DNA from: Candidatus Heimdallarchaeota archaeon
GTDB lineage: Archaea > Asgardarchaeota > Heimdallarchaeia > Heimdallarchaeales > Heimdallarchaeaceae
Assembly (NCBI GenBank): GCA_030603365.1
Contig: JAUVXV010000002.1
Span: forward strand, 384,001-448,000
Length of the DNA: 64,000 bases
Direction: 5' to 3'
In this document: positions 387-51,096 of the stretch, piece after piece
How the letters are laid out: every line of letters starts with the position of its first letter
Numbering within the stretch: the first letter of the stretch is position 1
Program-made: the position numbers and the translations under genes
Notes under the pieces: generated by a model
The model's input: only the letters and a program-made list of their open reading frames with translations
The model's database searches: none
Told to the model about the DNA's origin: nothing

Positions 387-1907
387 ATGGCAATTCATGA
401 GGTAGCTCTTCATCCTTCTAGGAAGATAAACATACGTGTTTTAGTGATAGCTAACCTCATTTCTGGTCTTATTGCAGGTTTCTATAATGTAATTTTACAA
501 CCTTTTATTGTTGAATTGATTAATTTAAATGGAGGAAGTGTAAATCCTGAAGAAACATTAGGAACAATCATGACAATAGCATCACTGATACAAATTGTTC
601 CATTGATTTTTGCAGCCAAAATCAGCGATAAGATTGGACGAAAAAGAGTAATTCTTGGTAGTTTTCTTTTCTTTCCTGTAGCTATGTTATTATTTGGAAT
701 AGCAGGAATACTTCCTTTAAAGCATCCCATTTCCTTCTATACTTTTTCAGATGGATTCTTCGTTGATATTCTTAAGCATCCTCATCTTACCCAAAATGGT
801 CTTCCTTTAACTTATGCTCTTGCTGTAGCTTTCCTTGGTTTAAGCTGTGTATCCTTAGGATTTGGATTTGGAGATCCTGCAGGTGGTGCTTTAATAGCTG
901 AAAGTGCAGAAAAGAAAAAAACAGCATCATCTTTTAGTCTTATTAATATGGCTTTCTACGCAACAGGCTTAATTGGTCCTCTAATAATAAGAATCTTAAC
1001 TAACAAAATTGAAATCTGGGTGTATTTCTTTATCCTCGCTGCATTAAGGATAATAATGTTCATCTATCAATTGTTTGCGTTAAAAGAGCCACATGTGATA
1101 AAGGACTATAGTCCTAGTATATTCAAGCAATTTATTCAATCTTTGAAAGCTATCTATCTAATGTTTATCCAGATGTTCAAATCAATTTTCCTTTACCTTT
1201 CCATTCCAGTTGTATTAATCATTAATAGAATTAATAGAACCAAAAGAAACAACTATATAGAAGAAGTTAAAACTAATCTCAATCTCTTAAAAGAAATTTT
1301 TCGAAATCCTGGAGTACCTTACGCAATAGGATTTTTCATATTGGACGCTTTAACCTGGGGATTGAGTATAAGTATATTCTGGGGCAGTCTAGTTACTCAA
1401 TATAATTTTAATGAAGGAAATATAGCAGTTCTTCAGCTGGTTTTCAATTTAAGCACTCTTATATTTTTTATACCTGTAACAAAAGTATCTGATAAATTAA
1501 GTAAACCGCAGCTCCTTCTTCTTAGTCAACTTACAGGTGGATTATTCTTTACAGCAAACATAATTGCATATTTTACTCTTCCACAATACAGGTTGTATAT
1601 CATAATGATTGGATGGATAGGATTAGGAGCAAGCGTAGCATTCTGGATGCCTGGAATAATGTCTATACTAACAAATTTTGACAAAAGAAGAAGAGCTGAA
1701 GCATATGGATTAGTGCAAGGATTATCTAGTGTTGGATGGTTACCAACCTCTTTTCTTGCCGGTATCATAATTTCCAGAGTCAACTTCTTAACAGTTTTCA
1801 TTATTAGTTTAGTACTCTTACCTTTCAATCTACTTATGGCATGGAAGTTCCCAGATAAAGAGGAAGAAGATGAAGAAGATTCAAGCAAACAAATAGAATC
1901 AAACTAA
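387..1907 (+). CDS. MFS transporter
   Basis: About 12 hydrophobic segments; motif A 'AKISDKIGRKRV' repeated as 'TKVSDKLSK'. Confidence 0.85.
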   Translation: MAIHEVALHPSRKINIRVLVIANLISGLIAGFYNVILQPFIVELINLNGGSVNPEETLGTIMTIASLIQIVPLIFAAKISDKIGRKRVILGSFLFFPVAMLLFGIAGILPLKHPISFYTFSDGFFVDILKHPHLTQNGLPLTYALAVAFLGLSCVSLGFGFGDPAGGALIAESAEKKKTASSFSLINMAFYATGLIGPLIIRILTNKIEIWVYFFILAALRIIMFIYQLFALKEPHVIKDYSPSIFKQFIQSLKAIYLMFIQMFKSIFLYLSIPVVLIINRINRTKRNNYIEEVKTNLNLLKEIFRNPGVPYAIGFFILDALTWGLSISIFWGSLVTQYNFNEGNIAVLQLVFNLSTLIFFIPVTKVSDKLSKPQLLLLSQLTGGLFFTANIIAYFTLPQYRLYIIMIGWIGLGASVAFWMPGIMSILTNFDKRRRAEAYGLVQGLSSVGWLPTSFLAGIIISRVNFLTVFIISLVLLPFNLLMAWKFPDKEEEDEEDSSKQIESN

Positions 1908-49143: not shown

Positions 49144-49237
49144 ACTAATAAACTTTCTTGCTAAACGCTCTTAGACTTAAGGAATCATAAAATAACTAAA
49201 CAAAGACGAATTACTACTAATACGTTTTAGTTCTTTA

Positions 49238-49251
49238 CAGAAAACTTTAAA
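49238..49251 (+). promoter_or_regulatory. BRE + TATA box of the C/D guide RNA
   Basis: CAGAAAA-C-TTTAAA; the TATA ends 24 nt before the 5' stem at 49275, matching archaeal promoter spacing. Confidence 0.6.
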
Positions 49252-49274
49252 CTAGACCTAATCAAGTTCATTTT

Positions 49275-49353
49275 GGAGAATCATCTGTGAAGAAACAACG
49301 GTCTCGGATTCAGTAGAATATGACAGCTGATGGGCGGACTGAGGTGATTCTTC
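49275..49353 (+). ncRNA. Box C/D methylation guide sRNA (predicted targets 16S C1402 and 23S ~C2591, E. coli numbering)
   Basis: 11-bp terminal stem; C box GTGAAGA 49287-93; D' CGGA 49305-08; C' ATGACAG 49320-26; D box CTGA 49339-42; 11- and 12-nt guides antisense to conserved rRNA; T-rich tract after. Confidence 0.85.
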
Positions 49354-49359
49354 TTTATT

Positions 49360-51096
49360 TCATTCTAAGACAACTTCAATTATCGAATTATATCTATCAA
49401 ATGAAAGCCTCTTGTGCCCAGTTGCTGAAACTAAACCTAAGGAGTTTCCTCCAGACAAATCATCTTGTAAAGAGAAGTAAACAAAGCCTTTAATCTTTGG
49501 TTCATTAAGGCAGAGTTCCAACATTCTTGCTAAAGTAGCTGCTTGAATTCTTTCACCATACATAACTGCTGAAATACCAAATTCACATATCCATAGTTCT
49601 TTTGTTGAAGCTGTAGCATCTTGTAGAAATAGAGTCAAGTCCAATTCTCGAGCATGCACAATAAAATAATCGATTCCCAGAAAATCAAGGGTTGTGTTTT
49701 TCCACAAGGATTGGAAAACACTTACTTCATAATACACTCCAAAGTCGTTATATGATAGATTTACACCTATTTCTGTATCATTTGAGTAAGTTCGTAGAAC
49801 TGTTACTGTATCTTCTATAGCTTCAGCCCATTCATCAGGTGTTGGAAGGTCTATAACATAAGCTGATGAAAAACCATAAGGCTCTGGGTAAATCAAAAGA
49901 AATTCAGGGTCACATAATTGAATTATCTCTATTGCTTGATTTTCTATTTCTGCGATATAATCAGTAAAGTTTATTGTTTGGAAATTCCATATTGGGAAAC
50001 CATATCCATATGTTGACAACATAATTTTGAAACCATTTGCTTTAAGTTCATCTGTTATGCCTTGTAATTCCGTACTATGATTATAAAGTAATTCAGATTT
50101 TATATCCATTCGAACAGTGGTTACATTGAGATCCAACAGTATCTCCAATTCATATTGAAATTCTTCATAATAATTGTCTGATAAACTTTGCTGATAAGTA
50201 ACTGTCTTTAATGATACACCAAATTCAAAATCATTTCTTACAGGATATTCAGGAGCATAATTTTTGGAGGTAAACTCTCCATATGAAGCCATTGTTCCAA
50301 TATTTAGAAGTGTGAATACAATTAGAAGTATAATCCCCATCGCATATATTCCCTTAGCACCATTATCTAGAAAAACTTTAATTTGAGGTAATATTGGTAG
50401 TTTTTCTCTTTCTGAAGGATCAAATCCGTCAGTAAAAACACTTGATTTAGAATTTTCATCAGTTTTTGTTTTCTTCTTTTCTGATTTTTTCTCAACAGAT
50501 GCCTCTTTCTTTGGTTTATTCTTCTGTTTTTCATCCACACTTTTACCTTTCTTTTTGAATTTAAGTGGAATTGCGAGAGGTATTAAAATAAGTACAGGAT
50601 AGAAATACCCAACTGCGCCATATAGAAAGGCTTCAAAGGAAGCATATCCTATCGAAGGGATAATCATGAACCACTCAAGAGCCTTAGGTAGAATGAAGGC
50701 AGTCTGAGCTTCTATGAAGTTCAGTAAAAGCATACAGGATTGGAGGGCAAGCACTGTGAATAAAACATTGATTATCTTTCCCCATCTTGTAGCTTCGATT
50801 GATTTCTTGAAAGCGAGAATAGTTACCACTAGATTATTTACAAAGAGTATAAAACATCCTACAAGACCACCCCAAATAAACTCAATTGATAAAGATAAGC
50901 TAAACCATAGAAAAGCTAGAACCGTTCCTATTAACATCACTCCTGCTGAACTCAAGTTCCATGCTTTCTTTGTAAAATCAGGTTTTGCCAAAGATTCATA
51001 AATTAATTTTCCTGATACACTAGCATTATATAACAATGCTAAATAAGCAAAAACAATTGAAGCTTCTGGTGGTAAGATAGACATAGTGCTCAACAT
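49360..51096 (-). CDS. Multi-TM protein with C-terminal clan GH-A-like glycoside hydrolase barrel
   Basis: About 6 TMs, charged linker, then 'VRMD', 'YPEP', 'DFLGIDY', 'LWICEFG', 'GFVYF'. Confidence 0.65.
   Translation of the reverse strand: MLSTMSILPPEASIVFAYLALLYNASVSGKLIYESLAKPDFTKKAWNLSSAGVMLIGTVLAFLWFSLSLSIEFIWGGLVGCFILFVNNLVVTILAFKKSIEATRWGKIINVLFTVLALQSCMLLLNFIEAQTAFILPKALEWFMIIPSIGYASFEAFLYGAVGYFYPVLILIPLAIPLKFKKKGKSVDEKQKNKPKKEASVEKKSEKKKTKTDENSKSSVFTDGFDPSEREKLPILPQIKVFLDNGAKGIYAMGIILLIVFTLLNIGTMASYGEFTSKNYAPEYPVRNDFEFGVSLKTVTYQQSLSDNYYEEFQYELEILLDLNVTTVRMDIKSELLYNHSTELQGITDELKANGFKIMLSTYGYGFPIWNFQTINFTDYIAEIENQAIEIIQLCDPEFLLIYPEPYGFSSAYVIDLPTPDEWAEAIEDTVTVLRTYSNDTEIGVNLSYNDFGVYYEVSVFQSLWKNTTLDFLGIDYFIVHARELDLTLFLQDATASTKELWICEFGISAVMYGERIQAATLARMLELCLNEPKIKGFVYFSLQDDLSGGNSLGLVSATGHKRLSFDRYNSIIEVVLE

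Follow-up and report, generated by a model that had tools for sequence, protein, structure and literature searches.

A predicted dual-guide box C/D small RNA gene conserved in a family of Heimdallarchaeota

What, if anything, is encoded between two minus-strand open reading frames (ORFs) around position 49,300 of a 64,000-nucleotide stretch of a Candidatus Heimdallarchaeota archaeon genome (GCA_030603365.1, contig JAUVXV010000002.1, positions 384,001 to 448,000 of the forward strand; hereafter the window, whose coordinates are used below)? An initial annotation, made from the letters of the sequence, had proposed a dual-guide box C/D small RNA (sRNA) with its own promoter, one guide being aimed at 16S C1402 in the decoding centre and the other at the peptidyl-transferase region of 23S ribosomal RNA (rRNA). 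Comparison with related genomes decides that the locus is a real, conserved sRNA gene, and the full explanation, a box C/D guide sRNA gene at 49275-49353 (+) with a promoter of its own consisting of a B recognition element (BRE) and a TATA box, is on this sequence evidence highly probable.

Conservation and covariation in related genomes

BLAST searches with the locus recovered 13 homologues from the same genus at 70-86% identity, pattern and model searches yielded 22 unique members in five genera, and a covariance model found one copy per genome in 26 of the 30 genomes of one Heimdallarchaeota family, with scores of 57-91 bits. Homologues are confined to metagenome-assembled genomes labelled Heimdallarchaeota, AB_125 among them. 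Identity across the family is distributed very unevenly, reaching about 98% in the guide cores as against about 50% in the arms of the terminal stem, 32-71% at the variable box positions and about 40% in the flanks. A comparison of the boxes and spacers across the members showed that: 1) the GA dinucleotides are invariant in every box. 2) Box C contains RTGA and box D contains GA in 22/22 unique members. 3) Box C' displays RTGA in 18 of the 22 and AGGA in four. 4) Box C position 6 and box D position 1 form a G-C combination in 20 of the 22. 5) The 3b.3n position of the internal kink-turn (K-turn), formed by C' position 5 and D' position 2, is restricted to C-G, U.U, A.C or G.U. 6) The spacer between boxes C and D' measures 11 nt (16 members) or 12 nt (six), and that between boxes C' and D 12 nt (20 members) or 15 nt (two). 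The TTC/GAA hairpin separating boxes D' and C' is kept in most members, with the compensatory variants TCC/GGA (L112) and TTGCC/GGCAA (G016), and in one clade a kink-loop (K-loop) of 4-6 nt takes its place.

The terminal stem is maintained by compensatory change: 87.1% of its cells are paired across the family and double changes occur in 10/10 pairs. Its covariation score of 0.652 compares with 0.337 for shuffles, none of 500 of which reach the observed value, and with 0.15-0.33 for slid registers, and RNAalifold recovers the same stem independently. Likewise, cognate arms pair with a mean energy of -12.85 kcal/mol, against -8.48 kcal/mol for non-cognate combinations (0/5000 permutations reach the cognate mean). 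As the stem includes G:U pairs, it is specific to the plus strand. A promoter motif of the form AGAAAACyTTAAAC lies 27-31 nt ahead of the nominal start of the 5' arm in 18 of the 22 unique members. Conserved boxes and guides together with covarying stems in related Asgard genomes were what the initial annotation had named as a check of its reading, and all of them were found. Weak covariance-model matches in family f5 were set aside, their guides being too different to count as homologues. The sister family f3 (L146, L147) possesses an sRNA with the same D-side architecture and a different D' guide.

Several points weigh against this reading. The internal C' and D' boxes are degenerate, and, taken as a single sequence, the locus does not exceed chance in its boxes, stem or complementarity. 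With a loose C/D descriptor, 89 loci are returned from the genome as against 56 from its reversed version, and when strong rRNA complementarity is also required there remain 8 loci with the real rRNA and 15 with reversed rRNA; given this lack of enrichment over both kinds of decoy the genome-wide scan was dropped as support. The match of the D guide to 16S is equalled by 20% of shuffled rRNAs. The locus rises above chance because of its conservation and covariation in relatives, and not by its single-sequence features. Further, part of the family set was found with patterns that contained the guides, and hence guide invariance is partly a matter of construction; the 13 BLAST hits and G016, which was found by the model only, are free of this bias and give the same picture of conservation.

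Predicted targets of the two guides

Alignment of both guides to the host's own rRNAs, another check that the initial annotation had proposed, gave matches for each: 10/10 positions on 23S for the D' guide and 10 bp on 16S for the D guide (E. coli numbering, set by alignment to MG1655, is used for rRNA throughout). The D' guide, ACAACGGUCU, is fully Watson-Crick antisense to the host 23S (L007:1168-1177), a match equalled by 1.25% of shuffled rRNAs. The host sequence at 2587-2596 is AGACCGUUGU, and the match is 10/10, rather than 9/10 as first counted, because position 2594 is U in the host but C in E. coli and in the archaeal/eukaryotic consensus; the assignment of this guide to the peptidyl-transferase region, with C2591 beside the Cm2959 site, was upheld. 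U2594 is present in every sampled relative of families f1 and f3, matching the guide, and in G016 the D' pairing is kept through a C-to-U wobble change. A distant Asgard family, whose rRNA is missing from the assemblies, has ACGACGGUC guides that suit the C2594 form, and the sRNA of family f11, whose genomes are without assembled rRNA, combines the same D' guide with a 23S-like D guide. With the 11-nt spacer of the host the +5 base of the guide, G49300, faces C2591, and in the six members with a 12-nt spacer, which belong to sister lineages, the +5 rule gives C2590. That the host spacer is 11 and not 12 nt makes the methylated position uncertain by one nucleotide, and this counts against an exact assignment. 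C2590 is presumably the position of yeast Cm2959, on a 38-nt count from Um2921 (= U2552) along the yeast sequence; the count is consistent with Am2946 and Cm2948 landing on A and C. To within one nucleotide, then, the prediction is solid that the D' guide targets helix 93 of 23S on its 5' strand, next to the peptidyl-transferase centre.

For the D guide two sites in the host come into question. The 16S site in helix 44 is CCGCCCGUCG, with G at position 1408, and the guide forms 10 bp with it, the +5 base G49334 facing C1402; owing to G1408 this duplex contains two G:U pairs and not the single one reported at first. The 23S alternative in helix 92, CGCCCAUUA, which the initial annotation had overlooked, pairs over 9 bp with one G:U; its +5 falls on C2558, which precedes the D' target by 33 nt. 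The 16S duplex is the stronger, at -19.6 to -20.5 against -15.9 to -16.8 kcal/mol, in the host and in 12 of the other 14 homologues analysed (13 of 15 in all). Comparison of the guides points in the same direction: 1) at positions 8 and 11 only U and C occur, the bases able to pair with G1405 and G1408, and C has arisen there in lineages with A2561 and A2564 retained (G053, G079), where it disrupts the 23S pairing. 2) Position 10 is G throughout, which suits C1407; opposite U2563 it would only wobble, and no drift to A is seen across the class. 3) The derived A2555 of the host subclade is uncompensated in the guide. 4) In G053, whose D guide departs from the consensus at 5 of 12 positions, the best rRNA target is still the 16S C1402 site, the duplex being entirely Watson-Crick but for one internal mismatch. 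5) An unrelated, complete C/D sRNA of another Asgard family (L090/L091; G109, G110) has the D guide ACGACGGGCGGA, followed by CUGA, which is fully Watson-Crick to 16S 1399-1409 in the same register and with +5 on C1402.

Other observations speak for a classic double guide limited to 23S domain V, in which the D guide would target the 3' strand of helix 92 (C2558; U2555 in G003/G006) and the match to 16S helix 44 would be a by-product of the likeness between CGCCCGUC and CGCCCAUU. In G003/G006 a 3-nt insertion creates 13 bp with the 23S A-loop strand in canonical register, with +5 on U2555, and at the same time throws the 16S duplex off register; the organism's own 23S beats its own 16S in G040 (11 against 9 bp) and G028 (10 against 9 bp); and in genus g3 a C at guide position 8 occurs together with G2561 in 23S. 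Such an arrangement is also favoured a priori, as 262 of 489 archaeal sRNAs are double guides with sites within 100 nt, and Methanopyrus sR64 is predicted to act on the equivalent C2832 (PMC4644070). Where the helix-44 and helix-92 sites differ, the D guide carries a base (U or G) that pairs with both, and these dual-compatible bases are nearly invariant across the family. Setting the duplex energies and the discriminating substitutions against these cases, we favour, with moderate confidence, 16S C1402 (the second C of the GCCC motif in helix 44) as the real target of the D guide in the host. This claim of the initial annotation thus stands in part: the 16S duplex is the most stable one in the host and fits the discriminating substitutions, but the match alone is not significant and the 23S rival is nearly its equal. 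Action on 23S C2558 in the host is plausible, if doubtful; confinement of the RNA to domain V is somewhat unlikely, and a truly two-target D guide serving both C1402 and C2558 appears unlikely. Among tRNAs, the best matches are mismatched within 10 nt, and there is no tRNA competitor.

Two further explanations concern the role of the RNA and its very existence. It might act chiefly as an rRNA-folding chaperone that holds the strands of helix 92/93, or one of 16S, while the ribosome is being assembled, with little or no methylation at one or both sites; chaperone roles have been proposed for double guides (PMC4644070), an intron insertion point follows the D' target by 4 nt in the host 23S, and the D guide undergoes register shifts of 1-3 nt (G030, G003/G006) while complementarity stays. 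We regard this as very improbable in view of the Watson-Crick pair at +5 of both guides in nearly all members and of the conserved 11-12-nt spacers and box GA cores, which catalysis requires. Least probable of all, to the point of being hardly credible, is that there is no RNA gene and that the locus is a cis element, which would either serve the convergent 578-aa gene as terminator or 3' untranslated region or contain the promoter of the DUF3160 gene on its other side. The locus is indeed tightly linked to the 3' end of the former, which adjoins it in 18 of 20 loci in five genera, and the stem could serve as a bidirectional terminator hairpin. However, the G:U pairs restrict the stem to the plus strand, and a terminator leaves unexplained the invariant GA cores, the exact 11-12-nt spacers, the conserved plus-strand promoter and the perfect complementarity to the variant 23S of the host, as well as guides that stay fixed while the neighbouring protein diverges to 36-86% amino-acid identity; the DUF3160 gene is not a conserved neighbour. 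Two other readings of the locus were also rejected. A minus-strand RNA would turn the G:U pairs of the stem into C.A mismatches, and a 57-aa ORF at 49320-49493 (+), which starts in box C', was discarded by inference, its ATG being GTG or AGG in relatives and the arm lengths varying by 1 nt.

Returning to the guide sRNA, what the sequences show is its architecture, conservation, covariation and complementarity to the host rRNAs, together with the genes for a ribonucleoprotein (RNP); that it is transcribed, assembles into such an RNP and directs rRNA methylation is inferred. The host assembly (3.65 Mb, 33% GC) encodes fibrillarin and Nop5 as adjacent genes on contig C1 and two L7Ae-family proteins. 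The sRNA would be transcribed from its own BRE/TATA promoter, with transcription probably starting at or close to the 5' arm. As in the archaeal C/D RNPs that have been characterised, L7Ae would bind both K-turns, the terminal (C/D) and the internal (C'/D') one, whereupon a Nop5 dimer and two fibrillarins would assemble on the sRNA. Each 11-12-nt guide would then pair with nascent rRNA, and fibrillarin would methylate the ribose of the nucleotide opposite guide base 5, counted upstream from box D' or D. The D' guide is expected to yield a methyl at 23S C2591 in the host and at C2590 in the sister lineages with a spacer longer by 1 nt, and the D guide most likely one at 16S C1402, with 23S C2558 as an alternative or additional site.

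Architecture of the locus, neighbouring genes and host rRNAs

The predicted gene is 79 nt long (Table 1). Its terminal stem of 11 bp, two of them G:U, stops 3 nt before the GA of box C and begins straight after box D, as in the geometry of a K-turn, and the sRNA folded alone closes this stem at -25 kcal/mol (z = -2.65). The positions that the initial annotation had given for the arms, bulge, boxes, TTC/GAA hairpin and BRE/TATA were all verified. Its K-turn and its pairing of C' position 5 with D' position 2 are borne out by the covarying stem and the restricted combinations of the two positions, and the promoter that it placed 24 nt upstream recurs in the relatives as described above. The downstream T-rich tract that it noted is present as TTTATTT, but this contains no run of five or more T and argues only weakly for a terminator.

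Table 1. Features of the candidate sRNA locus, in window positions
Feature	Position	Strand	Remarks
Promoter element, BRE-like AGAAAAC and TATA-like TTTAAA	49239-49251	+	Read directly; ends 24 nt upstream of the stem
Terminal stem, 5' arm GGAGAATCATC	49275-49285	+	Pairs with 49343-49353; covaries across the family
TGT bulge	49286-49288	+	K-turn bulge beside the terminal stem
Box C, GTGAAGA	49287-49293	+	6/7 matches to RUGAUGA; with T49286 gives a 3-nt K-turn bulge and tandem GA
D' guide	49294-49304	+	11-nt spacer; bases 49295-49304 antisense to host 23S 2587-2596
Box D', CGGA	49305-49308	+	GA invariant; position 2 associated with C' position 5
D'-C' linker with TTC/GAA hairpin	49309-49319	+	Internal K-turn, not K-loop
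Box C', ATGACAG	49320-49326	+	Degenerate; consensus matched in the RUGA half only
D guide	49327-49338	+	12-nt spacer; 49328-49337 against 16S 1399-1408; 49328-49336 against 23S 2556-2564
Box D, CTGA	49339-49342	+	GA invariant
Terminal stem, 3' arm GGTGATTCTTC	49343-49353	+	Pairs with 49275-49285
T-rich tail, TTTATTT	49354-49360	+	Possible weak terminator; abuts the stop codon of the convergent gene
Convergent 578-aa gene	49360-51096	-	Conserved neighbour; stop codon 7 nt from the 3' arm of the sRNA

The protein encoded by the convergent gene has no Pfam or NCBIfam match. In a metagenome contig from a close strain, 8 differences from the host all fall in 49253-49271, the 19-nt stretch that separates the TATA box from the start of the RNA, and the other 283 aligned bases are identical; the depth of this contig is low and errors are possible. 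Reads of one small metatranscriptome, from a sample in which this DNA occurs, did not cover the locus, a result that counts neither for nor against its transcription. Elsewhere in the host genome, two more loci look like genuine dual-guide C/D sRNAs (minus strand of G000:C3 near 66544 and minus strand of G000:C14 near 94469). Each combines good boxes with a terminal stem of 8 bp, is preceded by an AT-rich, TATA-like stretch and matches 16S or 23S over 11 bp (one G:U; score 10.5).

The 16S rRNA of the host is complete, and its 23S is divided over two contig ends and carries insertions. Two of these lie in domain V in the 3' part (L007, G000:C14), at L007:668-1015 and L007:1181-1330, and are likely introns; the second begins 4 nt past the D' target, after GUGAGA, occurs in some relatives of the same genus and is missing from G003, G023, G053 and G054. 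In the host 16S (L001, G000:C8:10098-11577, minus strand) position 1358, equivalent to E. coli 1408, is G (CCGCCCGUCGUU), as in eukaryotes, where E. coli has A, and G1408 is found in all sampled relatives of families f1 and f3. Immediately past the 3' limit of the Rfam 16S match, at L001 ~1440-1505 (minus strand), CTGCGG and the anti-Shine-Dalgarno sequence GGATCACCTCC of the 16S 3' end are separated by a palindrome of about 33 nt, GTATGTAGG...CTTACATAC, an insertion that may represent a mini-intron or an expansion.

Relation to known guide RNAs and significance

The sRNA shows the sequence-level features that define the archaeal box C/D class and is placed in it: boxes C and D, internal boxes, a K-turn, guide spacers, at least 9 bp of pairing with a stable RNA that is Watson-Crick at N+5, and the RNP genes in the same genome. 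No catalogued family accommodates it. Rfam at gathering thresholds gave no match over the whole window, and a permissive scan of the locus gave sub-threshold matches only, none of them to SNORD35, snR73, SNORD43 or snR70. The best curated C/D family was RF01139 (sR2, a Pyrococcus C/D sRNA), whose box layout and spacing align end to end with the locus; as the score of 15 bits falls short of the gathering score of 42, the locus is not a member. The proposal of an unannotated dual-guide box C/D sRNA in an Asgard genome is thus borne out both by the conserved family and by the Rfam comparison, in which no C/D family reached its gathering threshold. In the same database, the 5' unpaired part of RAGATH-27 agrees near letter for letter with the promoter region UUUACnGAAAACUUUAAACUA (49231-49308, +; 18 bits overall), and the RAGATH-27 model may include an Asgard promoter consensus.

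In their predictions for Crenarchaeota and Euryarchaeota, where helix-44 predictions are called sparse, Dennis et al. (2015) list targets at alignment position C2864 (= E. coli 2590) for four sRNAs including Pca sR30, at C2832 (= E. coli 2558) for Mka sR64, and at C1389* (= 1402), the last with a mismatch at the target nucleotide (PMC4644070). Since 2590, 2558 and 1402 have already been predicted as sites in other archaea, their targeting is not specific to Asgard archaea. Pyrobaculum calidifontis sR30, with its D' guide for C2864, and Methanopyrus kandleri sR64 are RNAs of the same kind, which follow the same N+5 logic on helix 92/93 nucleotides; however, they bear no detectable sequence relationship to the Heimdallarchaeota RNA and their partner guides differ. 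The Heimdallarchaeota RNA is longer (79 nt), has a covarying terminal stem of 11-12 bp, replaces the K-loop by an internal hairpin K-turn in most members, and comes from an AT-rich genome of mesophile type (33% GC), unlike the thermophile RNAs. The long covarying stem and the internal hairpin K-turn of most members are its unusual features, and they are minor.

Among eukaryotic small nucleolar RNAs (snoRNAs), snR73/SNORD35 (U35) is directed at the AGACCG motif of helix 93 in which the predicted D' target also lies; in family members whose spacer is 12 nt, +5 coincides with the equivalent C2590, whereas in the host it falls one nucleotide 3', on C2591. Guides converge easily, and hence orthology with snR73/SNORD35 cannot be shown. 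Bacteria rely on RsmI, a stand-alone protein enzyme, for the ribose methylation of m4Cm1402. Should the 16S reading of the D guide be right, the sRNA would address the same universally conserved decoding-centre nucleotide as snR70/SNORD43, C1402 being equivalent to yeast 18S Cm1639 (snR70) and human Cm1703 (U43/SNORD43) (PMC2794176, PMC8817022). Yeast 25S Cm2959 (snR73) corresponds in turn to human 28S Cm4506 (U35) (PMC8817022). The idea of the initial annotation that one Asgard RNA may span sites at or beside those which eukaryotes assign to two separate snoRNAs is weakened, since sRNAs of other archaea have been predicted to target the same sites; the D' guide is directed at or beside Cm2959, and the other half of the idea depends on C1402, which is favoured but unproven.

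In the literature searched, no paper describes C/D sRNAs in Asgard archaea. The family described here is uncatalogued but of an ordinary archaeal kind, and it leaves the view of how C/D guide RNAs work unchanged. Two general points emerge from it: a guide tracks a lineage-specific rRNA substitution (U2594), and look-alike rRNA sites make target calls from single sequences unreliable. If the D guide does serve two targets, a single RNA of 79 nt would mark three sites in functional centres (16S C1402, 23S C2558 and 23S C2590/91) and touch the precursors of both subunits, possibly coupling their maturation. Heimdallarchaeia are among the closest archaeal relatives of eukaryotes, and the prediction is that ribose methyls would be found in these archaea at or beside two universally eukaryote-methylated positions, the equivalents of 18S Cm1639/Cm1703, made in bacteria by a protein enzyme, and of 25S/28S Cm2959/Cm4506.

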